64,000 nt of DNA from Rhynchobatus australiae. Taxonomy: Eukaryota. The position numbers and the translations under genes are program-made. Positions 4,401 to 41,000 of the stretch are shown here, piece after piece. Under the pieces are notes generated by a model that ran no database searches, was not told where the DNA came from, and saw only the letters and a list, made by a program, of their open reading frames with translations. The stretch spans positions 38,045,605 through 38,109,604 of the forward strand of contig JAUZTB010000033.1 in assembly GCA_034780895.1 (NCBI GenBank), read 5' to 3'. Numbering within the stretch: the stretch's first letter is position 1; each line of letters begins with the position of its first letter.

Positions 4401-7400
4401 AAGAATCGAATGCAAATTAGGAAATTGCTTTGCTGAATGTATGTTTCTTTCAGAGAGTATTAGTTCTTAGTGTTCTCAGACATCCTTTTAAAAGTCCCTT
4501 CTATTCCATTTCTGACCTTTTACATAGGATATATGGCACAGAAATAGGACATGTGGCCTATCCAGTTCATGCTTATTACATTATAAATGGCTACTTTTTC
4601 TCTTTCCTCTGAACTAATGCAGTGAGGAACAGGAACAATATTTCATACTTTTCTTGGGCTTTCTGTACAGCTCTGGTCAGAAGAGTTAAGATTCTTGGGT
4701 TTGTTTTTAAATTTGTAATTTAATTAATGACCTGAGTATTATCTGGTGTGTGTATTTTGGTATCAAGTACAGCTTGTATTAAGCTTATTGGTGATACTTC
4801 ACCAATGATTCAATAACCTGTTCAAATTAACTTTAGAAGAAAGAAATTTGAGTTTGTCCTCAATCTTCTCGCCTCTGATCTGGGCAGCAAACCCAATTCA
4901 GCAAAATTCAGCCCATCAACAATGGGAACACAGGAGACACAAGCAACTGTGGATGCCGGAATGTGGAGCAAAAAACCTTGTGCTGGAAGAACTCAGCGGG
5001 TGAAGTAGCATATGTGGAGGTGAAGAGATGGTTGATGATTTGGGTCAAGACCCTGCATCAGGACTGAGGTGTANNNNNNNNNNNNNNNNNNNNNNNNNNN
5101 NNNNNNNNNNNNNNNNNNNNNNNNNNNNNNNNNNNNNNNNNNNNNNNNNNNNNNNNNCTCAGTGATGAGTGAAACAATAAGGGGGGGGGGGATCTAGAAA
5201 AGGGGATACATCCTCCTTACTAACCCACTCACACTTAGTTTTCATTGATACAATAAAAGATCATCTACTGTTCCTAAATGCAATTTAGTTGTACAAACTT
5301 TGAGGTAACGACATGAATCCTTCCATCTATTCAGTGTGGACTGGAAACATTCCATTCTGAGTAAAACATAGGTCCTTCACCTCACCACACCCATACTGAC
5401 CCATTTGTCTGCATTAGTGCTGTATCCTTTTTTGCCTTGCCTAATTAACAATCTATCTAAATGTCTCTTAAGCGTAGTAATTGTATCGGATTTCACCACC
5501 TCCTCTGGCAATACCTTCCAGATATCAACCACTCTCTGTGTAAAAAAAAATTACCTCCTGATCCCCTTTAAAACTCCTACCTTTTCCCTTAAACCTGTAC
5601 CCTCTTGTTTTGGTGCAGCCCTTTTAATTAACTACTCTCTTTCAAGTGTATTCCTCTGTTTCATTATTTCAGAAATGTACAGTGTATTGGCCTGAGTATC
5701 AAGCCAATTATCAAGGAATTGAAGTCATTGTCAACAATGTTCTACATGCAGATGATTACAGTTTGAGAAACATCACCCTGAAGGTGAGAGAATGTTGTCT
5801 TTTGGACCTTGATTGTAACTATTATTGTTGGATCAAGTATTCTTGAAGAGTATTATTTATTCACACAAATAATATTATTATTTTCCATCTCTTTAACTAA
5901 ATAAACTAATTATTTCCCATGAAACCCTACCTTTTCATTATTTGATATGCACTATCACACTGTGCCATATAGATGACTACAAGTATGAAAGACTTGAAAA
6001 TATAACTAATTCAGAAACAAATGGGCTTTGTAAAAGACGTCGGTGGTCTAACAGGAGCTTTGAGAATTTTGAAATAAATCATTAGAATTATTTCAGACAG
6101 CTGATTCACTGTTGAAGAGTTCAAACACCAGAGGAAATCAAAAGTAAAAAGAATTCAGCTGATGCATTTGTAAAGGATAGTTAAATAACTAGGGAAATAC
6201 ATTTGAACAGTCACTACAGATGAAGTTGGGACAATTGGATTTTTTTTTAACACAGTAAAGACTGAGCAGATTGGTTGGAAGATTGGGATCTATAAAAAAG
6301 GAAGAACCTGTTGTGTCTGATGCTGTTTCGTCATTCTTAATTTTGTTCCACTCCTGTGCACAATTCCTACAGAAGCAGAGACAATGGGGCCAACCTTCAA
6401 TTTCAGTAGCATCAAAGCAGTGGTGCTCACCTAAACTAATTTTTATTTCCACAGAAGTCAACACAAATTCATGTGAAAGAATTGGACTTATTTTGTGAAC
6501 CCTCCCCACACTCCCTTTTGAAATCAAGGCCATGGCCAGGAGCTGAAGGATTTGGGGGTCTGAGTGTCTTATTGAAGAAGGAATCCTTATTGCTGTAAAA
6601 TTAAGGCACCCAATCTAAAATGACTGTTGCATACGCAGAAGCTACCAATATCTGTGTATTGCAGGAGAAGCTGTAACTTCTTTCATGGCTCTAGTTCAGG
6701 TTTAAAGGGACTTTAAGAGTGTTACAGCAGTCCAGGAATCAGTCCTCCAACAAATTACAATGCAATAAGAAGCCGTGGGTTTGTGGCACAAATCTGCTAT
6801 TCTCTTTTAGGATGTTGACATCCGTCCTCCTATAAAAGGCGATCTATATTCCAAATTTATTCACAGCAGAAAAGGAGGCCAGTCAGTCTACTGAGTCTTT
6901 GCTAGCTCTCAGAAAAGTCCCATTCCGCCTCTTACTTCCTTGTAATCTATTCTCTCACATGCCCATCAACCTTCCCCCCAACCGCCCACCTACATGGGGA
7001 ATTATTTGTCCTGTACCAATTAATCTAACAGGCAGTCCATCTTCAGGACATGTGAGGAAACCAGAGGACCAAGGGAAACCCACACGGTGACATGGACAAT
7101 GTGCAAACTCCACACAGACAGCACACGAGATGAACCTGGATTGCTGAAACTGTGAGGCAGCAGCTTTACCTGCTGCACTACCATGCTGATATGCAGTGTC
7201 AGCCAGCCAGCTAAAATTGACTACTAACTTTAAAAGATACGCTGCAGACATGGACCAGTATATCACCCATAAAATTCCAACCAAATCCACATTCCTAGAA
7301 TTCAAACAACTAGTGCCTCTTTGTGACCACAGTTTTCTAAACAAAATTCTAAACTGAAGCTATTTTTATACACTGTTCATTGGGAAAGGAATAAAATAGT

Positions 7401-10400
7401 CCCTGTAAAATGAACATGACTAATCATAATATTCAAAGCAAATGGGGAGTAAAGTTAAATAACAACTTTCTTTACTCCAGATAACAAATTAATAGGCAAA
7501 CTTGTAGATTTTTAAACCAGAAATTAAAAGATTAAAACATAAATAAAGACTAAATTAACTTTCATTCAGAACATTCACCTCTTACTTGAATAATAATATA
7601 GTATATTCCTTTCAGAATTTCTATGAATTTTTCTTCTTTCTGCTGTTCTTGTTTACATACTCTCATATACAAATATATCTCTAAATAAGAAGGATTCAAT
7701 CCCAAAACCATCTGGAAACATATCAAAATTTCATTTATCACATCCTATGTGCTGACCAGCTAAATTTCTCCACACGAGAGTTTTCAAATTACGTTCTTCT
7801 GGTTTTAGGATGGTTTTGAGGAACGACATTTAAAGCACTATTGGTACACATCCTGGCCAGATCAGAAGACACCAGACAATGCTCGACCACTTTTACAACT
7901 GGTCCAGGAAGTGGAAGAAGCTAGAATGCAAGCAAAGAAGGACAGTCATGGACCAGTAATAGTCCATTGCAGGTAGAACAAAGAACTTTATATAATTTCA
8001 GAGCTAGAACCTTGCTGTACTTTTCCAGACTCAATCTTTCCCATGAACTTAGCTCTTATAATTCCGGCTCCTTCACCTGCAAAATTTAAACATTCACATA
8101 TGAAGTCATTTAATCTCTGCTTCCTGATTTGCTTATCCTTTTTTTTTGTGGTAATCTAGTTTTTTTGTTGATATAGCTCTTCACCAGTCTTCTCCGTCAT
8201 TAAAGCAAGCTCCAGAATGATTTCCGCAGCTGGATTCCAGTAGAAAGGGATGCTCTCAACCAAATTCGATTTTACTCCACTCACTTGTTGTCTTAAGTGT
8301 GCAAAATATAGAGTCCCATCACTTTATGTGGAATAAATTATTTATTTGGTTTACTTGTTATTGTATTGCAGTGCGGGCATTGGGAGAACAGGTTGTTTTA
8401 TTGCCACCAGCATCTGTTACAGAGAGCTGAAGTATGCTGGCGTGGTTGATGTACTGAGGACAACTTGTCAGCTAAGGATAGACAGGTAATTGTGAAAGAT
8501 AATTGCAGACATAAAGGGTTTTAGCAATGGTACATCAATGAAATTGGGGGAAAAGCACAGAATATGAAGAAGATTTGTAATAATGGTACAGCAAGAATAA
8601 AACAATCATTTTCTTAGCAAACACTAATAATCTACCAAAGTATTTCTAGTTAAAGTAAATGTCTCATTTTATTCACCACTGGACTACAAAAATCTTATTG
8701 AATATATGCAAAGACTGCAGGTACAAAAATACTGTTGATTAATCAATTTATTTTGTAGAAATCCTTATTATGTATCAGCATAATTCTCTTATGGCTTAGG
8801 GATTATGCCTTTTCTCATTTATAATTACATTATTTTCCAAACTATTTGAAAACAAGATGGAGAATAACTCTCTATTGGAAGAATTGTGAGAGAGGGCCAA
8901 ATTAAGAACCAATTCTTTACACCCCACCAATTCTTTTTTCATTCTTATCCAATTCCCTTTTGAGATCTATGAACAAATCTCCCTCTGCCAACCTTTCTGC
9001 AGACCTTTCAAATGCCAATCACTTGCTTTTGTAAAAAGCATTTCTTTATGTTGCCATTGGTTCTTTATACCATGGAGATCATTTTAAACCTGTGTTCTCN
9101 NNNNNNNNNNNNNNNNNNNNNNNNNNNNNNNNNNNNNNNNNNNNNNNNNNNNNNNNNNNNNNNNNNNNNNNNNNNNNNNNNNNNNNNNNNNNNNNNNNNN
9201 NNNNNNNNNNNNNNNNNNNNNNNNNNNNNNNNNNNNNNNNNNNNNNNNNNNNNNNNNNNNNNNNNNNNNNNNNNNNNNNNNNNNNNNNNNNNNNNNNNNN
9301 NNNNNNNNNNNNNNNNNNNNNNNNNNNNNNNNNNNNNNNNNNNNNNNNNNNNNNNNNNNNNNNNNNNNNNNNNNNNNNNNNNNNNNNNNNNNNNNNNNNN
9401 NNNNNNNNNNNNNNNNNNNNNNNNNNNNNNNNNNNNNNNNNNNNNNNNNNNNNNNNNNNNNNNNNNNNNNNNNNNNNNNNNNNNNNNNNNNNTTTGTGTT
9501 GCCTTCACATTTTGAAACATCCCTATACATTCCAAATTCAAGTTATTAATATGTATCAGGAAAAATAATCCTCTCTGCACCACAGACTTTAGTTTGAAAA
9601 ACAATTGTTCACCTTTTACTCTGTTTTCTGTCCCCAGGCCAATTTCTTATCCACACTGTTTCTTTTATTACAATGCCTTCAACCTTTCTGGCAACCTATT
9701 ACATGGCACTTTATCAAAAGTCCATATACACTTCAACCACGCTGACCTCATTAACCGTATCAATTCAATCAGATTAATTAAACACAATTTGCCTTTTGGC
9801 ACAGAAATAGTTGATATAAGAGCAGTACAATTTGTTCTTTTAAGAATATAACAGCAATCATTCTTTATAGAATTTTTATTCTGGTGGAAAACTTCTTTTA
9901 TATCTGCTTGGGATAAAAGTATTTTGGATTGCTTTCACAAATAATTTGAAAGTGATCCAAAAGGAATATAAAAAGCCTTTGCAAGCTAACATTTCAAATG
10001 AAAGCTGTGATCAGCATTGTTTTATTTTAGAGGAGTACCCCAGAAGCAAACAAGATCACTGTAAATAGATGATTACTTTTCTTGGTCAAAAATGAGCATG
10101 AAAGGATTCAATATAACAGAGGTCATGCATGCACACATTGCAAGTTGGTATTGGTTTATTATTGTCACTTGTACCGAGTTCTTCTTCAGTCAAAATCCAT
10201 TATGAGAAAATAGCAAAAGATATATCCATGACCCATATTCAAAGCTGGTATTAAGTCTTCTCCAGGTGCAATAGAAGACCTAGTTTTAATATTTTTCATT
10301 AAATGGGCTTTTGGCAATCATCTTAAGTTTCAAACTTCATCTAGTTCTATCCTGGAATGGTTACTGGATCTATGACTTAAATAGGATATTATGTCATGGA

Positions 10401-11048
10401 TAGGATACTTAAGTCATCGCAGTCCAAATGATGGGTCCCAACCCAAAAAGTTGACAGTACACTTCTCTGCATAGATGCTGCCTGACCTGCTGAGTTCCTC
10501 CAGCATTTTGTGTGTGTTGCACTTTGGCAAAATGGTCAAATCTACCACTAAAAATGCTCAATGTGATGGGATGGTAATGCCATGACATCAGATATATACC
10601 ATTTCACATTTGCATGTACAAAATGAGGGAGAAGGATGTCAAATGTGGAGATTGGGAATGGTTGTGCAATCAACAATTGAATAAGTTCTTTGGAAAATAC
10701 AAGAGTAAATGCAAGGCAGCTGAGATCTGAAAGTGCAGGTGAAAGTTCCCAGAGCTGACTCCCTGTCAATGGAAGTGGCAAACTGTGACATTCAATAATC
10801 TCTGAATTTCCTAGTGTGAATTATTATGATTCTTGCACTAAACAACATTAGCTGCCATAGGATTTCTGAGTTTCTTCAGTGTTTCGAATAAATTGAAAGT
10901 ATTTTGCACTTCCACAGGAACCTTACCTGATGTTGATGTTGTATTCTTTCTTAGGGGAGGGATGATCCAGACATGTGAACAGTACCAGTTTGTGCACCAT
11001 GCCCTGAGCTTGTGTGAGAGACAGTTATCCCAACAAGCAGAGGAGTGA
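1350..11048 (+). CDS. PTPN5: PTPN5/STEP KIM-family tyrosine phosphatase, 3' part (5 coding exons: 1350-1487, 5673-5783, 7809-7972, 8372-8485, 10955-11048); 5' exons lie upstream of the window
   Basis: Spliced translation [15 protein letters not shown]...KCTVYWP...[14 protein letters not shown]...[17 protein letters not shown]...[16 protein letters not shown]; all introns GT-AG with consistent phases; [15 protein letters not shown] and [11 protein letters not shown] fit PTPN5 rather than PTPRR/PTPN7. Confidence 0.93.
3780..3945 (-). mobile_element. Degenerate Myb/SANT-like (trihelix) coding remnant, probably PIF/Harbinger-derived
   Basis: Minus [27 protein letters not shown] resembles the WEEIAxxVNAxxxxxRTxxQCRKK pattern. 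Confidence 0.35.
4930..5073 (-). mobile_element. Penelope-derived short repeat (chondrichthyan ...GATGCTGCCTGACCTGCTGAG family)
   Basis: Reverse complement reads cctgatgcagggtcttgacccaaatcatcaac...tgctacttcacccgctgagttcttccagca. Confidence 0.7.
5673..5783 (+). CDS. PTPN5: PTPN5 exon (111 nt) [37 protein letters not shown]
   Basis: tttcag / gtgaga splice sites; KCxxYWP motif. Confidence 0.93.
6990..7185 (-). mobile_element. HE1/V-SINE-like tRNA-derived SINE
   Basis: ggaaaccagag..gggaaacccacacggtgaca..gcaaactccacacagacagc..ctgtgaggcagcagc is the reverse of the V-SINE core and head. Confidence 0.75.
7809..7972 (+). CDS. PTPN5: PTPN5 exon (164 nt) containing the WPD loop and VHC
   Basis: ttttag / gtagaa; [54 protein letters not shown](S). 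Confidence 0.94.
8372..8485 (+). CDS. PTPN5: PTPN5 exon (114 nt), catalytic P-loop
   Basis: ttgcag / gtaatt; (S)[37 protein letters not shown](R). Confidence 0.94.
10421..10520 (+). mobile_element. Penelope-derived short repeat
   Basis: atagatgctgcctgacctgctgagttcctccagcattttgtgtgt shared with the copies at 21.2, 30.7, 38.3 and 49.8 kb. Confidence 0.75.
10955..11048 (+). CDS. PTPN5: PTPN5 terminal coding exon (Q loop, stop TGA)
   Basis: ttcttag acceptor; [30 protein letters not shown]. Confidence 0.94.
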
Positions 11049-11289
11049 GTGACAACGATCCAGCCATGGACCAAAGGGACAGAAAAAGTCTTGTTGACTA
11101 TTTTATGATCATAGTTTTACGTCATTCATCAGAAAAATGATGCTGAGGTGTGTGTNNNNNNNNNNNNNNNNNNNNNNNNNNNNNNNNNNNNNNNNNNNNN
11201 NNNNNNNNNNNNNNNNNNNNNNNNNNNNNNNNNNNNNNNNNNNNNNNNNNNNNNNGTTTTCCGTCATTCATCAGAAAAATGATGCTGCG

Positions 11290-11316
11290 GTGTGTGTGTG
11301 TGTGTGTGTGTGTGTG
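11290..11316. repeat. (TG)n microsatellite
   Basis: Direct reading. Confidence 0.95.
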
Positions 11317-11348
11317 CATGGTTCTCAACCATAATGTTTCAGTGTAGG

Positions 11349-12588
11349 TGATCTTGACATGCAATATCCTAGCCTTCTCATGTTTAAAAAACAGTTTTAC
11401 AGTTTATCAATTGTGCAGGAGTTAAAACATCAAATACACTAGTACCTCACTTAGCACTCAGAATATGTTCCCAGGAATGAGAGCGCTAATAGAATTTGTA
11501 CTAAAAGGGCCCTTACAGACTGTTCATACAGAAATATCTAATTGAAAACGCTGCTGTGCCAGAAAACTGGAGCAATCCCCTGTGCTCCCTGCACCCAGGT
11601 GCTGCTGTGCTCGGAAACTGATTGCTGGGAATTTGGAGTGAATCCAGCAATCAATTGGTATGAAGAAGCTGCTGGAGGGGGGTGGTGTTAGGTGGGCTGT
11701 CATGAGCCGTGTGGCTACTCAGCATTGAGATGTTGGGCTCAGGGCTGTAGCTTGTCTGCGACAGTGAGTGTAGACCATTGTGTTGACAGACTGTCCAGAT
11801 CCTACCAACTCTCTCATCACCATCATGTTTTGGATATGAGGGAAACTGATGTCTCCCATCCCTGCTTGTTTGGCAGTACAGCTCTCTCCAACCCAGAGGT
11901 TTCTCTATGATAACAAACTCCATAATGGTCACTGGCCTTTGAACTTGTGCAGCCAAATTGATTGGGGGCTCCAGCTTCTATCACATCCAAGAGGAGATGA
12001 TGAGATGGTAGGATCTNNNNNNNNNNNNNNNNNNNNNNNNNNNNNNNNNNNNNNNNNNNNNNNNNNNNNNNNNNNNNNNNNNNNNNNNNNNNNNNNNNNN
12101 NNNNNNNNNNNNNNNNCTGAATAGTCTGTCAGCATTTGGGGCAGCTGCTGCCTGTCCCCAGCACCAGCCTGCGCTCACTGTGCTGGGTAGGATGCAGCCC
12201 TGAGCCCCACACCTCAGAGGTAAGTGGCTGCACTGCTCACCCCGGCTCCCCACAATATCCAGCCCTCACTGGCATCCTCTTCACATTATGCCGTGGATGT
12301 AACATCGATGTAAAAGTGCCTGTGGAAATAGGGATTTGCCCAAATTCCTGACAGAATAGCACGCAGCCCAAGCGAAGATTTCTTTGAAGAACAGGGTCTT
12401 ACATGCCTGTGCATGTTCAGACTGGAGGACCAAAGTGTTCTGATAAATCAACACTCTGCAGGGTGGCACTAAGCAAGATACCAGTGTATTGTTGAGTGTG
12501 TAAAGCGTTTGTGTCTAAATAGGTATTTCTCACATCATAGGACATGCAGTGTTTCATCTAGGTTTCCAAAGTGATGTTGCCAGGATCA
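11349..12588 (+). repeat. Long degenerate inverted repeat (fold-back) in the presumed PTPN5 3' UTR, centre ~11913
   Basis: Nested complementary blocks, e.g. 11433-11457/12466-12490, 11622-11645/12331-12354, 11702-11771/12171-12240 (48/70 ungapped), 11781-11807/12006-12134. Confidence 0.85.
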
Positions 12589-15500
12589 ATGATGTTATCC
12601 CATCATATGAATCATTCAGCTGTTAAATTCCCATCATACTGTTTGAAGATTCTCCTGTTCAACGTTCCTCCCACAAAAAATACTACCAAAAACAATTAAC
12701 TGCAGTTTCATCTAAAAGTTGTTTGTAAAACATTGCTATACACTTTTAAGATACTTCTGTAAAAAAGTATATGGTGCTAGGTGTAAGTTCTTTTTTCCGT
12801 TCCTTCAGCACCATTTGCGTCAACAATCAGTGAATGCAGATCCTCTCATCTCAAAACAGAGGAAACAATTCTTACTTTTCCAAGAATATAATTATGAAAA
12901 TTATTTCCATTATGGCATGTCAAATGTGAGGACTGGTGAAATGTCTTGTTTAATACACGTACGTTTTAAGTATTTGTTTACTTTGTCGTGAAGGTAACTT
13001 TTTTTTTTATTCCTCTTTGCACATTTACAACTTTGGCCAAGAGGTTGAGTAGACCATTTTTAGGGTCTCTGAAAATGTTATTTGGGAATTGGCAATAACA
13101 GTCATTTTATCTATTGAAACATGAATGACTATAGAATGTGGTATCCATGCTGAGAATCTACACCAAAATAATATACAANNNNNNNNNNCTCAGGACCCCT
13201 CTCCCCCTCCTATAAACACAGCTATAAACTATCTTTGCAATCTGCAACTTTCTTAATTGTTGCACTTTGATGTTAGCCCCCAGTAGCACTTGATATTACG
13301 GTAATCCAATAAAACAAGGATTAAAATGTACAAAATAGAGCAGAATACAGCTTAAATAATATAAAATATCACAAAGACTTAAATATGATGAATCTTAATA
13401 TGACATATCTTTGAAGACCTATTATGGTGGAAGAGAAAGAATTTCATTCCTGGGGNNNNNNNNNNNNNNNNNNNGGCGATTTTGTGTTCCTGCTCTTAAC
13501 AAGTGTTCATCCCCAATTCTCAGAAAATGTTTCACATTTGTTGGGAGATTGGACTTTCTGTTCCTCTTTTCATCATGAGTAGGGTTTTATATAACAGACA
13601 ATTTAAGATATTCTTGTTAATATTGACTGTGATTGTAAATTGAAATGATTGTAGTATTTCTAAAGCTTTGAAGATTGTCGGTGGATAGGAACCCATTTTG
13701 TTTCTGGGGAGGGATAAGCTATTTGATCCCAATTTTGTACTGACTTGAATTTCTCGGAACAAACACTGGAATCAATGTGTTTGTTGTACTGAAATTTACA
13801 ACAATATAAGCAATGTGAATTTCTAGGTAATGACCTGCAGATAACAATTAATTATCATTAGTCATAATATCATAGAAGATTTACAATATATCGAGAGTAG
13901 AGAACATTATATTACAGGTAAAAAGTATAATGCAGCCATTTGTTAAATAAAATGTTCACTTGTAACAGGCATATTTCATTTATACTTAACTTTAAAGAGC
14001 AAGAGAAACAAATGTTTTTTTAGGGCTGTTCTCAAAACGTGAAGGATGTAATTCAGAATTTTCAGCCCAATTTCAAAGAGACATAATCACAGTACAAAAA
14101 TGTCCTAAATTAGATCATAATTGGACATCTAGTGTTTGGCTGACCAGTAGAGGGCATTCTTCTCATGTTAGAGTTAGGGTGCAAATGGATAATAATTGCT
14201 TTTACACATGCTATATCTGAGCTGGGAAAAGTGATGTCAATGCTTTTAAGAAAAGTTCAACATTATTCCATTCTTTAGTATTGATGAAACTCATCTTGAG
14301 CTTTAGCATGAAACTTATGGAATAGAGTATTGCCCTTAATTGTTGCCAAGTATAGGGTACTCTCTTCAATTATATTTTATTTCCCACAAAGGAAGTTAAT
14401 ATTAAGAAATGCCACCCTAATGCCAGGATCCCATATACATAAGTGTATATGACAAGTGAAGAGATATTCCTCAAATATCAAGAAAATTATACATTAGAAA
14501 GGAAGTTTTTGTATCTAATGAACATAGAAAGCAGGTTAGAATGAGCAAAATCATATCTTTTATTGAAGGTGTCAATGATTATAATGGTATTACAAAACTC
14601 TTCCGCAGTCTTTGATGTTGCTGAGTTGTGTAACTGTTAGAATGTTGAAAAGTTAAGTAAACAATTACAAACTCTTAAAAAGACTGTATGGTCATCAAAA
14701 GGAAGGGATAGGATCCATAACGAATGCTGTGGCATTCTTGTGGGAAAATGAACCCTTTCGGCTTTAATGATGCTACATATTATACTGAATAATCAAGTGG
14801 AAAACAATGTTTTGCCAAAAATATTTGTAGTGATTATAGAGAACAGCACTAGGATCTGGCTGAAATAACTGTATACAACAGATTTCACTTTGAATAAACA
14901 ATAATTAAATGAAGCACATCTTCAGAACTACATGCAGGCTGTAGAAAATAAATTAATTGGATTTCAATAATATGCAGCATACTTGATTTAGGTTGTATCA
15001 TTAACCGAAGATAAAAAGGCTAAATTCTGCCAGAAGTTTATTTTAAGAAGGGTATTCAAGAAGTAGGGAGGGAGCAGAGTTTCAAGGGAATTATAAATGA
15101 ACCAATAGCACAAGATCAGACTTTCAGAACATTTTCAGCAAACAGAATATGTTGTTGTGGCAACAATGAATATAGTATTCACAAAAAATTGCAAAAACTG
15201 AATTCATAGTTATAAGCAGATAGACTGTACCATATTTTACTGTCATACAGCTGTTCTGGGTCCTATAGATACATAAAATACTTGATATTCTACTTTATCT
15301 GTGCTGCTGTGATAAACATTCTGTGCTCAAATGCTACTAAGTATATATAATCTGTACTACTTAATAGATTTTGGAAAACAATTCCCTTTTAATTTCTTAT
15401 TAAATTGTTATTCATAGTTTTATTGCTTCTGAAAAACATAGAAATTTATAGATGAAAAAAGGCCCTTCTAGTTTGCCCTCCATGATTCTGATGGTTGTGT

Positions 15501-20990: not shown

Positions 20991-21122
20991 AAAAAATGAA
21001 AAAATAAATACCTTCTTCAAAGCCTTGCCTGTGCAAAATGATAGAGGATAAGTATGAAGGATTAATTTTAAGGTGGGGGGAAGGTATGTGTGGTGCTGAA
21101 CTGCATTTATGGGAATATTGAG

Positions 21123-21297
21123 ACACAAGAGATTCCGAAGATGCTGGAATCTGGCCAACACACACAAAAAGTGGTGGAGGAATTCAGCAGGTCAGGCAGC
21201 ATCTATGGTGAGAAATAAACAGTCAACCCAAAACATCGACTGTTTATTTCTCTCCACAGATGATGCCTGATCTGCTGAGTTCCTCCAGCACTTATTG
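21123..21297. mobile_element. Palindromic Penelope-derived element flanked by a 16-bp direct repeat (TSD)
   Basis: ttatgggaatattgag at 21107-21122 and 21298-21313; inverted arms 21170-21224 / 21238-21292. Confidence 0.8.
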
Positions 21298-21999
21298 TTA
21301 TGGGAATATTGAGCCTTGCTGCAAAGGAGAGTGCAAGACACGTGGCAATATTGTGAGCCTGAAATTTGGTATTACTGGAAGTTGGCAGTAGGATGGGCAC
21401 AAGGATGTTGTCAGGATGTGAAAACAAGAAAATATGCTCTAGATGAAGTTTCCTGAGTTTGGGATTGTTCGAGAGACACTTCAGGATCCAGGGTGGGGTA
21501 TGTATCCCATAGCTATTTATAAAGCACTGCTAACAATATGAAACATCCCAGGGCACTTGAAAGGAGTATTATCAAATAAAACTTAGACAAAATTTGTAAT
21601 TAGGTGGCATAAATATTTGGAGAGATGTCTAAAGGTTTGATTGTAGATATAGATTGTAAGAATCTTAGAGAGGGAAAGAATAGTAGAGTTAAAGGATATT
21701 TAAATGAAAGAATTCCAAAGACTAGGGACTAAGCAGCAGAAAGTTGGAGTGAATTCCATCAAACTCTAGACAATATTTCAATCCATAGCTTTTGCTTTCA
21801 GATCAGAACCTCTTTTAACCTTTATGTGACATTCTCCTTCCAAACCAATGTGAGGGAACAGTGATATAGATCCTATCCCTTTAGCTTCAATTACATCAAT
21901 TAGGCAACTGACATACTGATTCATAATATTCTTAATTTCACTCCCTGGGTAGTTATGTAGCACAGTGGATCACTCACATTTAAAATTATTAATTGAGGT

Positions 22000-27509: not shown

Positions 27510-28270
27510 ATGGGTGAGTGGCAAACACATGGTAGATTCAGTTTAATTTACAGCACAAATGTGAGGTTATCCAATCTGGTTCCAAAAACAGAAAGACGGA
27601 CTGTTTTCACCTGAAAGGTGAAAGATTGTGAAAAAGGAAGGTGCAATGAGACCTGGATGTCTTTGTACAACTGTCAACGAAAGCAAGTATACAGCTTTAG
27701 CAAGCAGATAGGAAAACAAATAGTATATTGGCCTTCATTATAAAAGAATTCGATCACAGGAGGAAATATATCTTGCTGCAGCATTGGGATGCCTGATCTT
27801 GAGATTTATATTGCAGTTTTGGTCTCTCTTTACTTGTTTTTACCAGGGATGAAGCATGAGGAAGGTTCATTAGACTGGTTCTTGGAAATGTTGGACTGAC
27901 GTATGAGGAGAGATTAGGTGGGTTAAGCTGAATATACACTGAATTACAGAAGACTGAGAGGAAATCTCATGGAAAAATTCTAACAGGGTAAATACAGGAA
28001 GTATGTTCTTGATTGCTGGAGAGTGCATAACGAGGGATAACAACCTCGTAATTCTGAATATGCTACTAAGAATTAAGATGAGAAATGTCTCATCCAGATG
28101 GTGAACCTATAGGATTCTCTACCACACATGACAGTGGTGGCCAAGTCATTAAATATATTCATGGAGTGAGATACATTTCTGGATGGTGATTGGGATGTGG
28201 GGAGAAGGCAAGAACACATTGAAGTAGATACTGGTGTTGAAGGTTGGAGCAGGACCGAATGGTCCACCCT
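27510..28270 (+). mobile_element. CR1-type LINE 3' fragment
   Basis: tgggtgagtggcaaacacatggtagattcagtttaat...gcagttttggtctc...gtatgaggagagattaggtgggttaagc...gtgaacctataggattctctacc. Confidence 0.7.
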
Positions 28271-28349
28271 TGACTCTATTCTGGGATCAACGTAGGAAGT
28301 CTATTATCCCACAAGACACGTTTATAGCAAGCCTTGCAAAAGAGTTCTC

Positions 28350-29035
28350 CCAGCTCGGTGACGCGGGTCTCCGGCGAGGAGACGGCGAGACACCCTCTTT
28401 GGCGAGCGGCCGGAGAATAGGCAGAATTGCCATCGTCGAGAGACTCCGCCAGTCTTTCGGACCAGTTACGACTCGATGATGGTCAATTTGCTTTCCACCG
28501 ATTATTAGACTATAAATAAATGATTATGTCGGTTTACGCCCGGTATGCGAGAAGTGGCAGTTCTCTATTTGACTGGACTTGAAGGCACCACAAGTGCTGG
28601 CGCGGATCCTCTTTCAAATTAATGGCGCCAGGATTCCACCCCCAACCGTCAGATGATTCGAGCGGGAGAGAGGCCGGTTCCCGGTCCGGGCCTCGGCCCC
28701 TCCCTCTTCCCGGACCCGGGCCGCACCTCCACCATCCACCATAGCTTATCTCTGCCTTCGCTCGGTCAAAGAGCAGCAGCCTGCAGCTCATCGCTCTGTC
28801 GGTTCCGCTGATTTCAAGCACCGACGCGTGGCTTCCTTCTCCGGGCTGAACGATGCACGTAAGCACCCGGGGAAAGGTGGGGATAAATGGAGCGGCTTTG
28901 GGGCCATCAACCCGGCGGCAACAGTGAGGCCTTCCTGCCGTTACAGGTCACAGCCGGGGTGACGGACGCCGCCTGATAACAGTGGTGACATAAGAGGCAG
29001 ATTTTTGAAGGGAACTGTCGGCACTGGGCCGGCTA
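28350..29035 (+). promoter_or_regulatory. CpG island / TKFC promoter and first exon
   Basis: The only long GC- and CpG-rich block in an otherwise CpG-depleted AT-rich window; contains ATG followed by a strong gtaagc donor. Confidence 0.85.
28853..28858 (+). CDS. TKFC: TKFC first coding exon end: ATG CAC (MH)
   Basis: gaacgATGCAC|gtaagc; A at -3; phase-0 join to HSKKLLN; the next exon has no ATG before the conserved KKL. Confidence 0.7.
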
Positions 29036-32000
29036 TGAAGAACATTATTAAAGTGGCAAGTTATGTCAGAGAGTAGATTTAAGGAACCACATCTGTCAGT
29101 TATGTTGTCACTTGCTGAAGCACTTTCCTTTTTAAAACCTTAAAACACGTCAACTTTGACTGTGTTTGTTGTGTAAAGAAGCTGTTTTGCATCGATCACT
29201 AACTTACCGATTGAAACAACTATAAAAAATGGGTTTCCATGCTGACTGCCACAGAGAAAGTAATCGTTAGGTCCTCCTCAACTGCCACCTCCCAGTGGCC
29301 AAAGAATTGCTCCCTAAATGGCAGTGTGGTATCCATCCACCTGTCAGCACATTAGGCATGATCTTCAGCCCACATCAACTCCAGCAGAAGTGCAGGAGGG
29401 CGTGGCGTCAATCTCTATGTAGTCTTTTATTGACCTCTCAAATGCAGCTTTATAAACTCGATTGAAAAGGTATTGGATTATTATTGTCACCTGTCTTGCA
29501 TACCAATTGTACAGGTCAATTCATTACACAGTGCAGTTACATTGGGTTAGTACAGAGTGCCTTGATGTAGTACAGGTAAAAATAACAGTACAAAGTGTCA
29601 CAGCTACAGAGAATGTGCAGTGCAAGGTCACAACAAGGTAGATCGTGAAATCATAGTCCGTCTCATCGTATAAGGGAACCGTTCAATAATCTTATCACAG
29701 TAGGGTAGAAGCTGTCCTTAAGTCTGGTGGTACGTGCCCTCAGGCTCCTTTATATTCTACCTGATGGAAGAGGAGAGAAGAGAGAATGACCCAGGTGGGT
29801 GAGGTCTTCGATTATGCTGGCTGCTTCACCAAGGTAGTGAGAGGTAAAGACCGAGTCCAAGGAGGGGAGGCTGGTGTCCCTGATGTGCTGGGCTGTGTCG
29901 ACAACTCTCTGCAGTTTCTTGCGGTCCTGAGCAGAGCAGTTGCCATACCAAGCTGTGATGCTTCTATGGTACATCAATAAAAGTTGGTAGGTGTTAAAGG
30001 GGACAAACCGAATTTCTTTAGCCTCCTGAGGAAGTAGAGGCGCTGGTGAGCTTTCTTGGCTGTGGCTTCTACATGATTTGACCAGGATAGGCTGTTGGTG
30101 ATGTTCACTCCCAGGAACTTGAAGCTTTCAACCCACNNNNNNNNNNNNNNNNNNNNNNNNNNNNNNNNNNNNNNNNNNNNNNNNNNNNNNNNNNNNNNCC
30201 CCCTTTCCTGAAGTCAATGACCAGCTCTTTTGTTGACATTGAGGAAAGGTTGTTGTCGTGACACCATTCCACTAAGCTCTCTATCTCCTTCCTGTACTCT
30301 GTATTGCTGTTTGAGATACGGCCTACAACGGTGGTATCACCTGCAAACTTTTAGATGGGGTTAGAGCAGAATCTGACCACACTGTCACTGAGGAGGATCC
30401 TTCTCAAATTTGGAGCGTACCACTTCTCAAATAGCTCACCAGCTCTCCCTTTCAAGCACCAGCGGCAAAGTCTACAGGTTTCTCACTCGTCTCATCAGCT
30501 ACTTCAGAACCAGAGTGGAAGAAAGTTACCAAAATCCAGAGGGGTAACAGAGAGATAAAAGGTTTTTCAAGCTATAGCTGTTTCTGTGTACCAGCACACC
30601 TTGCCTCTTGCCCCCATCCCATCCATTCAACCTCCCATTACTGGCTATCTCCCTTCAACTCTTTCTTCTAGATGAAGGGGTCTTGACCCAAAGCATCAAC
30701 TATCCTTTTCCTGGCACAGATGCTGCCTGACCTGCTGACTTCCTTCAGCAGTTTGTTTTTTGCTCCAGATTCCAGCTTCTGCAATCTCTTGAACCTTCCA
30801 TTGTACTTGAGTCCCAGATTAATCTGGAGATACCATTTCCTTCCTGGACTTTTCACGCCAGAGGCCTGCTGATACTGTTCTGTATCATTTAAACAACTGT
30901 TGCTTCTAATGATCTGACTGACTCCCATACCCACACTAATCTTTTACGAGAACCCTCTGACTCTCTGCTATTCTCTCTGCGATTCCCCTTCTTAACCTCT
31001 CCAGCACAGAATTAATAAGACAATTCTTCCAGTGTAGTATGTGCAGCTTCTAGAACAACAATCATAACTATGTAATATTTCATAACCTATTACAGAGGGT
31101 TGTATCACTGATGGTAGCATCATGATTTTTCAAATTAAGTCATGGGTGTATATGAACATTTTAGTAACTGTCACATGGACCAAAACAGTAGATGTTTTTG
31201 TGTCACCATCCTGCCTGACACGGATGAACTTTTTGAGCCAACGGATGTTCGAGCCCCATTACAGGTCTCAAGCACTTACTGAAACGTACATGAATGTTTG
31301 ACTGCAGTACTGAGAGAGTGCTGCGTTTCTGGCTGCTTCTTGCTCTATGGAGTTCTAAAGTGAACCTACTCCTGATTTCACCGGAACTACCACTGTAGCT
31401 TTGCAAATGTAGAGATTTCAGTAGAAAGTCCTTCAGTGCATTTGGTCATGGAAGGCCCAATCTACTGTGCATGATACCTCTGGCATTCTGAGCTCTCCAT
31501 TGATCTATTCAGATGCATATTAAATCTCATTTGGCGCTATTTGATGAAGAGTAGCGGTTCTTCTGCTGTTGCTGCCAACGTTCATTCAAGCAAAGCCCCT
31601 TTACAGGTGATTTCTGTTTAGGATGTATTCTGTGATTAGCACGATTGCTAAATCTCTTTTACACAACAACAACAACGACAACCTTCAAAAGCAATTGTTG
31701 GCTATGGATTGCTCTGGGTGTCCTTTGGAAGTGAGAGGTATCAAATATAAGCACATTCTTCATTCCAAAATATATATTTTCTAGTAAAAATCTTGACTAT
31801 TTTACAATTAAGTTATGTCAACTGTAAAGGTGATATACAGAGGAAATTGTACACTCAGTTTCTCAAGCCTGTTCCTTCATTGAAGAAGATCATGGCTGAT
31901 CTGAGAGTAACCTAAACTCCACATTTCTATCTCCCCCATTAACCTTTCACCCCTTTGCTTATCAAGAAACTATCTGCCACTGCCTTGAAAATATTTAAAG

Positions 32001-35000: not shown

Positions 35001-38000
35001 AGAAGGCAAATGACATGTCCTTTGTTTCTGGGGTGAGGGTGGTTAGGGGTGGGGCTAAGTTTAAAAATGGGAAGTATTGTTGCGACTGTACAGGCTACTG
35101 CTGAGGCTTTACCTGGAGTACTGTGTATAGTTTTGGTCCCGTTATTTAAGAGGATATACTACACTGAACGTGATCCATAATTGATTGAGTAGTCGTATTC
35201 CTAGGATGAAAGGTTTGCCCCATCACAAATGACTTCAAAGTTAGATCTATATTCTCTGGAGCTTAGAATGAAGAATCAGTTTTATTATTGTCACGTGTAC
35301 TGAGGTACAGTGGAAAAACCTGTCTTGCATACCGTTCATACAGATCGATTCATTACAACAGTGCATTGAGGTGGTACAGGGTAAAAACAATAACAGAATG
35401 CAGAATAAAGTGTAACTGTTACAGAGAAAGTGCAGTGCAGGCAGACAATAAGGTGCGAGGTCATAACGAGGTAGATTGTGAGGTCAAGGGTGATCTTACT
35501 AAAACACAAGGTCCTAAGGGAGCATGTCAGGGTAGATGTGATGTTTCCACAAGTAGGAGAGTCTCAAATGAGATGNNNNNNNNNNNNNNNNNNNNNNNNN
35601 NNNNNNNNNNNNNNNNNNNNNNNNNNNNNNNNNNNNNNNNNNNNNNNNNNNNNNNNNNNNNNNNNNNNNNNNNNNTGATGATCAATTGAAAATAAATATG
35701 CAGTACGAATCCACTATTGCTGAAGATCATCCTGCAGGACCAAGTGTTAGGTCATCAGTTGTACATAGGCCATGCTTCATTTAGTGGGGTAGCATTGCAT
35801 GGAAATTTTAGAGCAGGTGTAGGTTAGACAGACACTAAGTCTTTTGTTTAGTTGATGTTTGAATGGTATTTGGCATGATTTGATTCATAAATTTGATTTG
35901 GGGTGTTGATTTTATGTTTGATTTTACATTGGCATTCTGACCAAGTATGATGATCAGTAACAGAAGAAAGACAAAGCGTGGGATTGTTTGAATGAGGAAC
36001 TGGAGGTTTGTTCGTTGGTGGTCCTATCTGATGAATTAATCCCAGAAAATTTGGGCTTTGTTGCTTCCTTCCTCTTATTCTCCATTTGCTGGCTTGGGCT
36101 GAGTCCTCAAAACTGGAAGATTGAATTCTGTATAACAGACCACTACAAACTTGCAGACCTGCTCTGCTGAATACTTCAGGACACCTTTATGGATGACAAT
36201 GTTTTAGTCAAAAGATTATGTAAATTTTATAAACATTGTAATGAAAATGAGGCAAATATTGTAAATATGTTGGAAACTTTTTTTTAAAAAACTGATTCCT
36301 TCAGAGCAATTCAAATGGCAGAACTACTAGGGCTGCAAATATACATATACGAAAGTGTACCTCAACTGTTAATGTTAGAACCATTAAAAATACAAGCAGA
36401 GAAAGTTATAAAGGAGAAAAAAAATACATTTGTCAGTGTTAGCTCTTATATTCATGGTCTGTCATTGAATTTTGGAAATTTATCTTTTTTCAGGCTACGT
36501 CGGAGCAGGAATGTTGACTGCTGCTATTGCTGGAGATGTCTTCACTTCTCCCCCAACAGGAAGTATTTCAGCAGCGATCCGAACTGTGGTCAGAGCAGGA
36601 GCAGGTATATACACTACTAAATAGAGTGAGGTTCCCATGATGGCCCTTTGAGGGCTACCATAATGTTCATGTGGCCCTCAATGAAAATGAGTTTGACACG
36701 CCTGCTGCAATGTATAACCCAGGTAGTTANNNNNNNNNNNNNNNNNNNNNNNNNNNNNNNNNNNNNNNNNNNNNNNNNNNNNNNNNNNNNNNNNNNNNNN
36801 NNNNNNNNNNNNNNNNNNNNNNNNNNNNNGTAAGTCAATCTATCTCATCAATGTTGGATACATATCCTTATTGTGTTACTAAATTTTGTATCATGAATAG
36901 ATTTATATATATCTTAAAATTCATTTATAAATATGGTGACATGCTGCAGCGCCAGTTTTTTTTATATAAAAACAAGTTCCTGGGGAAAACCACAAATGAA
37001 ATTCTGCTATTTGAGTACCTGCCTTTATCCCTTGTTCTCCCTTTCATCTTACGAATTAGACCAATGCTTTCCAACTCTTCCATAGCTTTAAGTTCTCTGG
37101 CGTGCACAACCTCATCTTCACCATGGACATCCAGTCCCAATATACCTCCATTCCCCATCATGACTGCCTCACCACCCTCCACTTCTTTCTTGACCAGAGA
37201 CTGAAGCAGTCCCCTTCCACTAACACTGTCCTCCGCAAGGCTGAACTTGTTCTCGCCCTAAACAACTTCAATTTCGATTCCTCTCACTTTCAACAGACCA
37301 AGGGTGTAGCTCTGGGTACTCACGTGGGCCCCAGCTATGTCTGCCTCTTCACTGGCTATGTTGAACAGTCTCTGTTCCAAGCCTACTCCGGCTCCATTCC
37401 TTAACTCTTTTTCCACTATATTGACGACTGTGTTGGTGCCACCTCTTGTGCCCGTGTGGAACTCAACGGTTTCATAAATTCCACCACAAATTTTCACCCT
37501 GCTCTCCATTTCATTTGGACTATCTCTGACACCTCTCTTTCCTTCATTGATCTTTCTATCTCCATTTCAGGAGATTCCTTATCCACCGACATCTTCTACG
37601 AACCCACTGACGTCCACAGCTACCTTGATTACAGCTCTTCCCAGCCTGTTTCTTGCAAGGACGTTGTCCTTTTTTCTCAATTTCTCCGCCTCTGCCGCAT
37701 CTGTTCCCAAAATGAGGTTTTCCACTCCAGGACACCCGAGATGTCCAACTTCTTTTCTAACTGTGGCTTCCCCCGGACTTTGGTCAAGAGAGCTTGCACA
37801 CATATTCTGCCATTTCCTGAACCTCCGCTCTCACCCCCTGCCCCCCTTCGCAGATCCAACAGGGATAGGGTCCCCCTTGTCCTCACATTTCATCCTGCAT
37901 ATTCTACTTATCCAACACATTATTCTCCACCACTTTTGCCATCTCCACTACCAAGTATNNNNNNNNNNNNNNNTATATCTTCCCCTCCCAACCTCTTTCT

Positions 38001-41000
38001 GCCTTTCGCAGGGACTGCTCTCTCTGCGACTCCCTAGTTCACTCCAGCCACCCACCCATCGTGGGAACTTTCCACTGCCCCTGCCATAGGTGCAACACTT
38101 GCCCCTACACACCTCCATCTCCCTATCACCACCTTGTGCCCACCCCACCTCCTCTCTTTTGTCCACCGATCACTGCTTTTGCCTCCTATATATTGGGCTT
38201 CCCCTTTTCCTATCTTCAGTCCTGAAGAAGAGTCCTGCCCCGAAACGTTGATCATCACGGATGCTGCCTGGCTTGCTGAGTTCTTCCAGCATTATAGTAT
38301 TTTTCACCTAGATTCCAGCATCTACAGTCCTTTGTTTCTCTAGATAAAATCCATAGACACTAGCCAGTCTACCTTATTTGTTCCTGTTACAAAAACTTCC
38401 AACAAAATTAATTTGACATGACTTTTACATATTCATGTTGGCTGCCTCTGATGTATTCAAATTTGTCCAAAAACTCTGTCATAATAGATTCTGATAACTT
38501 CCCCATAACTGATAGTGGATTAATGAATCTGTCATATGATTGTGTATCTCTCTTTCTTATGTAATGGAGTGATATTGGCAATTAGAATCCCTCCATCTTC
38601 TGGCACCACTCCTTGAAATCCAAGGGGAATGAAAAATTATTTCCTGTGCAATCTCCTTCCATCCTTCCTTTAACATCCTGGGATGTATTTCATCCTGGCA
38701 ACTTACCCATTTTCAAAGATGATAAACCCCTTAATACTTCTGTTTTACATAAATATTTCATTCGATATTTCACGTTCATTCATCTTCACTATGGTATCGG
38801 CATCATCCCCATCTTCTGTGAAGACAATTGCAAAATATTCTGTAAGCGTCTTACCCACATCCTCTGTCTGCACACATAGGTTACCTTTCTGGTCCTTCAT
38901 GTGCCTNNNNNNNNNNNNNNNNNNNNNNNNNNNNNNNNNNNNNNNNNNNNNNNNNNNNNNNNNNNNNNNNNNNNNNNNNNNNNNNNNNNNNNNNNNNNNN
39001 NNNNNNTATGTACTTATAACAGGGGTTTGGATTTTCTTTTGTTTTACTTATCAATATATTTTCAAGTCATATTTATTCTTTTCTAATTGCCCCTTTTATT
39101 TTATTCCGAGATTTCCTATACTTCTCCAGGGTTTCTTCTGTACTGAGCTCTTGGTATCTGATGTAACCTGTACTTTGATGTTCTCTTGTTTTTGCAGCAC
39201 CATACACGGACATATTTAGCTATACTTGAAGACAAATGTCTTGTTTCTTGCTGCTCCCTCATAGTTTCTTGCTGCTACACACTGCTGATCTGTTCCTCCT
39301 TGCTTGCACACTGCTGCTACACTCACCTCAACTTTGCTACTTCACTCATTACTATCCACCCCCCACCCCGGCTACTTTGTTCAAGGTTCCCACATTTGCC
39401 ACATCCCTAGCTCTATCCACCCTTGCAGACTTGTGCTCATCAGTACAGTAATCCGATGTTGTATGTTGATATACCTGTGCCCTCTTATGCAGTGCCCTCG
39501 TGTTACAAAGTAGCAGACCCACCAGCATAGTAATCTAGTATTGTATGTTGATGAAGTTGAGGGACCTTGACAGAATGGATATGAAGAGAATGTTTCCTCT
39601 TGTGGGAGAATCTAAAACTAGAGGTCACTTTAAAAATAAGGGATGAGATGAGGCAATTTTTTTTCTGTCAGAGAATTGTGAGTCTTTGGAACTCTATTCA
39701 AAGCACGTTTAAATCAGAGCCTTTGAATATTTTCAAGGCAGAGGTAGATAGACACTTGATGACGTGGTGGAGGATTAATATGGGTGGATGGGAATGCAGA
39801 GTTGAAGTTGAGTTAAAATTCGCATTGACAGAGGTTGGTTTCCAAAAGGCCTAATTAGATTTTTTGGGTGAAATGAAAACAACCAGAGAGCTCTTCATAT
39901 ATCATTTGAGGCTGTAATCTGTGGAATGCATATTTTGCAATAACAGGAGAATCGGCTTAATGGCCAACTGAGAATCTCTGATTTCTACAAAGATATTTGT
40001 AGCCATTGCAAAACATGATCATGGTCTTTTATGGTTTTTTTTAATATCCATTTCCTTCCAATGTCATCAACTGCAGAGTCAGCTGATATACCAATAGTTT
40101 TCATTAATCTTTTGCTAACATTTTCTAATGCCTCTAAACAGTGCAATCTCCATTTTTTGATTAGGCTTCCATAATACACTTTGGAACATTGCTTGTTATC
40201 TGCATAAAAGTTTCAGTATTCCTTAATGACTGGCAAGAATAATTTGTCTGAAGAGGGCTAAATTAGTTGGTTGGATGTGGAATTAAAATGGTTAGGAAGA
40301 CAACTGTGATGGATTTTTAAAGACCTATTTTTCTGTACTTTATATCCAGCTGGTGTACTGCTGATTGTCAAGAACTACACAGGAGATCGGCTAAACTTTG
40401 GTTTAGCCCTAGAAGAGGCAAAAATGGAGGGAATTCCTGCAGAGATGGTTATTGTGGCTGACGATTGTGCCTTTACCAGGCAGAAGAAAGCTGGTAGGAG
40501 GGGTCTGTGTGGCACAGTACTTATACATAAAGTAAGTCCATTTATTATAACTCTCTTCAAAGCATTTTTAAGGTAGAGCCTTTGAATACTTTTAAGGCAG
40601 AGATAGATAGGCACTTATTAATATAGTGGAAGGTTAAAGTCTGAAGCCTTGGTGCTACATCAAGAGATCAATTTCACATAGTTACTAATGGGATTGGGAG
40701 TTTTTAAAGAAAGTGATGCATCCTATCCAGAATGCTAAAATGTCCAGGACAGCACAAAGAATTTTTCAATTTTTTTGGGGGAACTAGAATTGTGGTGAAT
40801 ATTATAGCTCTGTCAAGAATGGGTTAAGATAGGTTATAATAAACTCATTAATTTTAATTACGCCTCTGGTAGATACCTTGGCCTAATGGTACAATATTCA
40901 TGTCATCATGCTATTGAATCTCTATGAAAAATGTTGTCCATGAAAGCTGGAGATATCACGTGAATCATGGACCGCAGTTTTCCATCTGGTTATTCCATCC

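Follow-up and report, generated by a model that had tools for sequence, protein, structure and literature searches.

A degenerate fold-back downstream of the PTPN5 stop codon in Rhynchobatus australiae, a candidate double-stranded RNA element of the 3' UTR

The fold-back directly downstream of the PTPN5 stop codon in Rhynchobatus australiae is real, and its solid part is about half the size originally reported. An earlier note on this DNA had described a fold-back of about 1.2 kb. Within the window, that is the whole stretch of 64,000 nucleotides analysed here, the core of this structure was robust against shuffling, whereas its outer blocks were weak. Long imperfect duplexes in 3' UTRs are a known kind of element, of which the one at PTPN5 would be a further example.

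Extent of the inverted repeat

The core consists of a left arm (11656-11884) and a right arm (11941-12288) on the plus strand, separated by an apical spacer (11885-11940, plus strand) that has no stable fold and whose minimum free energy (MFE) loop lies at 11909-11924. The left arm is rich in G and U and holds a 70-nt block as well as a G-tract (11674-11692). The right arm is C-rich and contains an N gap (12017-12116) and a 27-nt unpaired insert (12135-12161). Aligned with each other, the arms gave 152 Watson-Crick, 28 G-U, 14 A-C and 20 transversion positions. The arm alignment, in which G-U was given no bonus, scored 176 compared with 52 ± 8 (maximum 86) in 300 dinucleotide shuffles, and the nested, collinear core claimed before is thus present. 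In a scan for inverted matches over 575 centres in the window the top four were all the PTPN5 element; the next scored 104 and the median was 56. The inverted repeat was also recovered by blastn of the whole window (E 2e-7). When the core was divided into halves (11651-11780/12135-12292 and 11781-11890/11935-12134), none of the 1000 shuffles attained the score of either half in any of the eight settings. The count given earlier for the 70-nt block (11702-11771/12171-12240) was exact, with 48 Watson-Crick, 12 G-U, 3 A-C and 7 transversion positions, and the block at 11433 had the opposite polarity, as had been stated (19 Watson-Crick, 0 G-U, 6 A-C).

Both flanks of the N gap in the right arm carry the letters CT, and when joined they keep the register with the left arm (11781-11811). 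Since they overlap by 2 bases and continue in register, we take this gap to be a placeholder of approximately zero length. The true span of the fold-back would then be about 1.14 kb, and that of the robust core about 530 nt.

Outside the core, the outer left arm (11340-11655, plus strand) is weakly complementary to the outer right arm (12289-12600, plus strand). The score of these arms (11340-11650/12293-12600) was reached by 4, 29, 14 and 78 per 1000 shuffles in four settings. When the zone was split, the middle part was reached by 17-100 and the outermost part by 0-12 per 1000 shuffles. We concluded that a weak outer extension probably exists and that its register is uncertain. One of the outer blocks described before (11510-11533/12438-12463) was absent from the optimal alignment, and the block at 11622/12331 was rivalled by 11550-11582/12329-12367, which prevailed in the ensemble of the whole UTR. 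When 11256-13330 was folded as a whole, the pairs with P>0.9 comprised 124 in the core, 38 in the outer arms (11459-11582 with 12329-12442) and 61 others; the outermost blocks, at 11349 and 11433, contributed none of them.

Two further features were observed in this region, either of which may be due to chance. A degenerate direct repeat (11545-11573/11596-11624, 51-nt spacing) lies in the outer left arm, so that 12330-12367 has two possible partners. In addition, 12122-12143 can pair with 12337-12358 (82% over 22 nt), in competition with the inner core helix.

The PTPN5 locus and the inferred 3' UTR

The last five coding exons of PTPN5 (STEP) lie on the plus strand at 1350-1487, 5673-5783, 7809-7970, 8370-8486 and 10956-11049. 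The last of them is preceded by an AG acceptor, ends with a TGA stop (11047-11049) and matches the C-terminus of elasmobranch PTPN5. Compared with solved structures (PDB), its translation matched PTPN5 best (E 3e-10), with PTPRR and PTPN7 behind. The exon at 7809 matched PTPN5 of sharks and rays at 91-94% and that of bony vertebrates at no more than 82%; the elasmobranchs with proteins named PTPN5 included Hypanus, Rhinoraja, Pristiophorus, Heterodontus, Scyliorhinus, Chiloscyllium, Rhincodon, Carcharodon and Cetorhinus. Among 16 proteins compared over 206 PTPN5 exon residues, Hypanus sabinus was closest (201/206 identical), followed by Rhinoraja (198). The position of the PTPN5 stop directly upstream of the element is thereby established by translation and by the PTPN5 matches.

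The inferred 3' UTR (11050-13965, plus strand) ends near 13330 or near 13965, as judged from poly(A) signals only. The first canonical signals lie at 13308-13325 (AATAAA at 13308, ATTAAA at 13320, plus strand) with a weak downstream element (T+G 0.33), and a second AATAAA follows at 13946 (plus strand). Neither AATAAA nor ATTAAA was found between the stop at 11049 and 13308; weak variant hexamers lie upstream of or beside the core at 11433, 11488, 11500 and 12442. Because no canonical poly(A) signal precedes the core, it is likely, as read from the sequence, that the inverted repeat is transcribed with the PTPN5 mRNA and lies inside its 3' UTR. Its location and its predicted stability agree with a duplex in the 3' UTR. 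After 12600 the stretch becomes AT-rich, with a U-rich distal UTR, in which motifs that we take to be miR-30 and miR-19 seed matches occur at 12975 and 13016.

The next gene identified after PTPN5 contains a Dak1 domain and lies on the same strand (plus), so no convergent transcript was found across the element. Its exons (40310-40573 and 50088-50342, plus strand) are preceded by a GC-rich stretch at 28001-30000 (GC 0.49). By its Dak1 domain, the gene that directly follows PTPN5 is one for triokinase/FMN cyclase, presumably TKFC by name. The two genes are not known to be adjacent in human.

The sequence comes from a draft assembly, and 26 N gaps interrupt the 64-kb window. A 100-N gap at 11156-11255 carries a 42-nt repeat on both flanks (11114-11155 and 11256-11297), which is probably an overlap of contig ends. 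At least two of the window's 100-N gaps thus appear to be placeholders, one with the 42-nt repeat and the other with the 2-nt overlap across it, and distances in the assembly are inflated where such placeholders separate overlapping contig ends. The sole tandem repeat found was (GT)n at 11290-11316.

Mismatch polarity and predicted folding

The earlier note had further claimed that mismatches favour G-U on the mRNA strand and that this fits selection on RNA pairing better than decay of a DNA palindrome. The bias held over the whole core when compared with controls from the window, while the ratio of 12:3 on which it had been based is that of the best block, picked afterwards. In the core, G-U made up 45% of the mismatches on the mRNA strand (28/62), compared with 27% (243/897) in the controls (p 0.0025). 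The controls were the window's other inverted pairs, 25 in number, aligned in the same way and excluding the PTPN5 element and a self-palindrome at 21164; they are dispersed repeats trimmed by blastn and so differ in kind from the element. With the 11 non-overlapping control pairs the excess remained (p 0.003), and none of the 17 controls with at least 20 mismatches reached 45% G-U on either strand. Relative to transversions, A-C was as frequent in the core as in the controls (p 0.46).

Taken alone, the comparison of G-U with A-C in the core (28:14) was marginal, with p 0.02 against a share of 0.5 and p 0.05 against the controls. Over five gap settings p was 0.008-0.024 at the null of 0.5; at a neutral share of 0.57 it was 0.06-0.15 and significant in no setting. 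The G+T skew was 0.994 in the PTPN5 introns, that is none, and 1.053 in the downstream gene. As the PTPN5 introns lack this skew, 0.5 is a fair null for the G-U share, and a transcription-linked mutation bias is an unlikely cause of the excess. A strand-flip null (0/100 reached -30 kcal/mol; null +8.3 ± 16.4) is tied to the G-U count and does not amount to extra evidence. The outer arms were balanced (G-U:A-C from 15:15 to 24:25), and mismatches in the core were unclustered. Thus the claim that the bias speaks for RNA pairing was upheld in part. Tolerance of changes to G-U on the mRNA strand would produce such an excess. The signal at the RNA level is modest, amounting to some dozen additional G-U pairs in a single sequence, and is suggestive and no more.

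The arms are 71% complementary and diverge by a K2P distance of 0.38 with a ts/tv of 2.1. CpG is depleted in the core (observed/expected 0.11 vs 0.20). These values of ts/tv and CpG resemble methylated, decaying DNA and count against reading the element as an RNA rod, whereas the GC content of the core (0.53 vs about 0.36) counts for it; 85 of the 152 Watson-Crick pairs are G-C.

For folding, the Ns were dropped, which left 546 nt (GC 0.53) for the core and 1161 nt for the full element. The MFE of the core was -258 kcal/mol on the mRNA strand, lower than that of shuffled sequences (-192.5 ± 5.9 kcal/mol, z -11.1, 40 shuffles), and -228 kcal/mol on the other strand (z -5.9). At full length we obtained -426 kcal/mol on the plus strand (z -5.3) and -410 kcal/mol on the minus strand (z -7.0), with 8 shuffles per strand, and hence no strand preference. 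Any inverted repeat folds better than its shuffles, so these z-scores confirm the repeat and not a function. The core duplex has 181 pairs at -237 kcal/mol over 472 nt (77% paired). It was computed to be a rod of two stacked segments, of 100 bp at -141 kcal/mol and 78 bp at -96 kcal/mol, which are 84% and 80% paired and have the 27-nt insert of the right arm between them. With a score that approximates the dsRNAscan scoring of PMC11838218 (threshold 75), the element reached 197 on the plus and 125 on the minus strand, compared with 91 and 102 for the next best elsewhere (419 centres per strand). Counting against the rod, the longest paired run in the core was 15 (permutation mean 19.6, p 0.87), and the non-pairs did not cluster to form loops (6 adjacent, with 5.0 expected; p 0.39). 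A test for tandem G-U pairs in the core gave no significance (p 0.25). A pre-miRNA at the apex was considered and rejected: the fold of 11860-11965 was no better than shuffles and formed no stable hairpin (z -0.14).

The G-tract at 11674-11692 pairs with 12252-12270 in the rod, and with the left arm alone ViennaRNA predicted a two-tier G-quadruplex there. A switch between stem and quadruplex is speculative and derives from modelling; it would be of interest since STEP mRNA is a target of FMRP.

Origin and possible role

We tentatively favour, at somewhat short of an even chance, an old inverted duplication that was partly kept as a dsRNA rod in the 3' UTR and is bound by proteins of the ADAR or Staufen type. 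An old local inverted duplication would now lie inside the 3' UTR of ray PTPN5, and the transcript is predicted to form an imperfect rod, about 180 bp long and made up of two stacked segments. On the sequence evidence it is about as probable as not that changes compatible with G-U pairing were retained in the core by selection on the RNA, the outer arms meanwhile decaying. The rod could serve as a landing site for dsRNA-binding proteins: ADAR might edit it selectively at short helices and A-C mismatches, proteins of the Staufen type might pack the mRNA into neuronal granules, and localisation, stability or signal-dependent translation of STEP would be tuned in this way. In the available text of PMC3516890, STEP mRNA is described as bound and repressed by FMRP and translated upon mGluR stimulation, and editing of GRIA2 in cartilaginous fishes is indicated by a title cited in PMC8659423. 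A role as an MDA5-type immune ligand was rejected, the rod being too short and too mismatched (181 bp, 77-84% paired) compared with the more than 300 bp and more than 96% pairing given for immunogenic dsRNA in the available part of PMC11838218.

For edited, non-repetitive human dsRNAs, Table 1 of the same paper gives a median length of 144 bp, a median of 30 contiguous pairs and a median energy of -185 kcal/mol; for unedited ones the part available has 75 bp, 14 contiguous pairs and -45 kcal/mol, and for conserved ones 65 bp and -42 kcal/mol. Against these values the ray core exceeds the edited median in length and energy, but its contiguity of 15 is like that of the unedited and unlike that of the edited dsRNAs. 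It resembles the dsRNAscan class, as far as that source describes it, in being rod-like, with at least 25 bp and at least 70% pairing, in its score and in belonging to a neuronal gene; to the ADAR substrates of this class it is likened by sequence and predicted fold alone. With the Staufen-bound long-range duplexes described in the accessible portions of the STAU1 hiCLIP atlas (PMC10164587) and of PMC8657808 it shares the place in a 3' UTR, a span that runs to hundreds of nucleotides and numerous symmetric 1x1 mismatches, as well as an mRNA that is neuronal and whose translation is controlled. However, the long-range STAU1 duplexes are enriched in A:U (PMC10164587, same portion), whereas the ray core is GC-rich. 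The Staufen type is moreover one isolated duplex and the ray element a continuous fold-back, whose Staufen binding is putative. For Rgs4, the available text of PMC8657808 describes a defined long-range duplex in the 3' UTR as the driver of granule assembly by Stau2 and of Stau2-dependent dendritic localisation.

Inverted SINE pairs of the IRAlu type likewise consist of two inverted copies that form a long imperfect duplex in a UTR, but the ray arms match no dispersed repeat in the 64-kb window. The claim that the arms do not resemble the repeat families elsewhere in the window was borne out, with no second copy found by blastn or nhmmer (arm profile over the window, next E 8.4). Searches of the whole window with Rfam gave 0 matches at gathering thresholds, and 11000-13500 gave two chance matches at E<=5; ARAGORN gave 0 matches. 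Pfam gave 0 matches in 12 of 12 arm frames (stops as X) and on the 4 arm ORFs (of 22 ORFs), and these results, by which the arms translate to no known protein, speak against a hairpin derived from a pseudogene or a virus. Two arm reading frames used as protein queries returned no usable homologue for an orthologous UTR, one of them matching an unnamed repetitive protein of 324 aa (23 residues in 6 stretches). Comparing 121 PTPN5-like proteins with 11050-13500 by tblastn gave three matches at noise level (E about 0.05). No target-site duplication of 6-10 nt was found at three candidate boundary ranges, where age may have erased one, and no hammerhead core was found in the arms.

That the repeat is a neutral fossil which came to lie in the UTR by chance is quite possible, if somewhat doubtful. 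It could be an old inverted duplication, two copies of an ancient repeat placed head-to-head, such as an inverted pseudo-LTR of a Penelope-like element, or a decayed foldback element or MITE; it might then be edited passively and have no selected role. The divergence, ts/tv and CpG depletion of the arms, the scattered mismatches and the outward fading of the pairing into outer arms without G-U bias are all in line with this. So is the fact that copies of a dispersed repeat form head-to-head palindromes in this genome (21164-21298, 81%). According to the available part of PMC8557442, inverted structures are often left behind by Penelope-like elements, and inverted duplicates are described in the accessible part of PMC5398296 as very common in vertebrate genomes, numbering millions in mammals. 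From the repeat palindromes of this genome and the inverted Penelope-like remnants, an ancient repeat origin of the arms is possible, and the palindromic layout of MITE/foldback elements and Penelope-like pseudo-LTRs is similar. However, the excess is specific to G-U on the mRNA strand, the element is single in the 64 kb, and it lacks the target-site duplication, the hammerhead core and any Pfam match; unlike in MITE/foldback elements, its best identity is not at the outer termini. A much more far-reaching reading, which we consider improbable, is that a non-repeat rod of about 180 bp has been selected for pairing across sharks and rays for hundreds of Myr and gates the neuronal STEP mRNA via Staufen or ADAR, or is diced into endogenous siRNAs; the rod would possibly hide a G-tract to which FMRP could bind once the stem has opened.

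The remaining explanations have lower probability still. The repeat could lie outside the main mRNA isoform because of early polyadenylation, or act at the DNA level as a cruciform or through gene conversion that raised the GC of the arms. The variant hexamers, the raised arm GC and two gaps of unverified size would allow this, but the lack of a canonical signal before 13308 makes it quite unlikely; a cruciform, in which both strands take part, would lead one to expect no G-U polarity, and its extrusion would be improbable at 71% arm identity with a spacer of about 56 nt. Drosophila hpRNAs are long, G-U-rich rods, which the core resembles. A Dicer-cut precursor of hpRNA-like endo-siRNAs or a miRNA precursor embedded in the UTR is nonetheless very unlikely, given a longest paired run of 15, no Rfam family, and arms for which neither a target nor a source gene was found. 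At about 1.1 kb, with some 70% of it paired, with raised GC and with folding in both polarities, the element is comparable to the rods of viroid-like, deltavirus-like or obelisk-like RNAs, and the G-U bias could stem from life as an RNA replicon. We regard a reverse-transcribed fossil of such an RNA as barely conceivable, as no ribozyme family was found in Rfam at E<=5 beyond the two chance matches, the arms have neither a hammerhead core nor a Pfam match in 12 frames, and pairing is uneven along the length. Equally slight is the probability of an assembly artefact, namely a chimeric fold-back read or a mis-join at the N gap. The draft does have 26 gaps, and the right arm contains one of them. 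However, a fold-back that arose as an artefact would be nearly 100% complementary, so that 71% speaks against a chimeric read; the 70-nt block lies in gap-free sequence, and the sequences on either side of the gap continue in register.

The available main text of PMC4053846, PMC10164587, PMC8657808, PMC11838218 and PMC8659423 does not mention PTPN5, nor does one supplementary file each of PMC8096273, PMC8657808 and PMC11838218. Such a duplex is likewise not described in the accessible literature, large site tables excepted, on PTPN5 with UTR/dsRNA, editing, Staufen or local translation, nor in that on catshark editing, cartilaginous-fish ADAR and Eulor palindromes, and the same literature describes no structural element in the STEP 3' UTR. 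If the reading of a long-conserved rod were true, the rod would surpass the usual conserved human dsRNA (median 65 bp) several-fold in length and stability. The signal-dependent translation of STEP, which is known, would then have its first cis-element. If conserved and bound, the element would offer a large, easily mutated handle on FMRP/mGluR control of STEP translation, and would be an instance of a long non-SINE duplex that a mature mRNA of a cartilaginous fish tolerates. If not conserved, it would count among the many old inverted duplications and hold little interest.

Elsewhere in the window, a dispersed repeat of about 130-170 nt was observed at 4927-5071 (minus), 10401-10522 (plus), 21115-21302, 30654-30791 (plus), 38212-38345 (plus) and 49724-49885 (plus), two copies of it lying head-to-head and forming the palindrome at 21164-21298. 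The copy at 38222 has a hammerhead-like core and lies downstream of a reverse-transcriptase remnant (37060-38037; RVT_1, E 0.001, below the cut-off). From these two features it is probably the pseudo-LTR of a putative Penelope-like element. A LINE-like remnant at 29977-30213 (minus) matched Pfam ALKBH8_N (E 6e-9); since the neighbouring frames are reverse-transcriptase-like, it is probably a retroelement and not an ALKBH8 gene.
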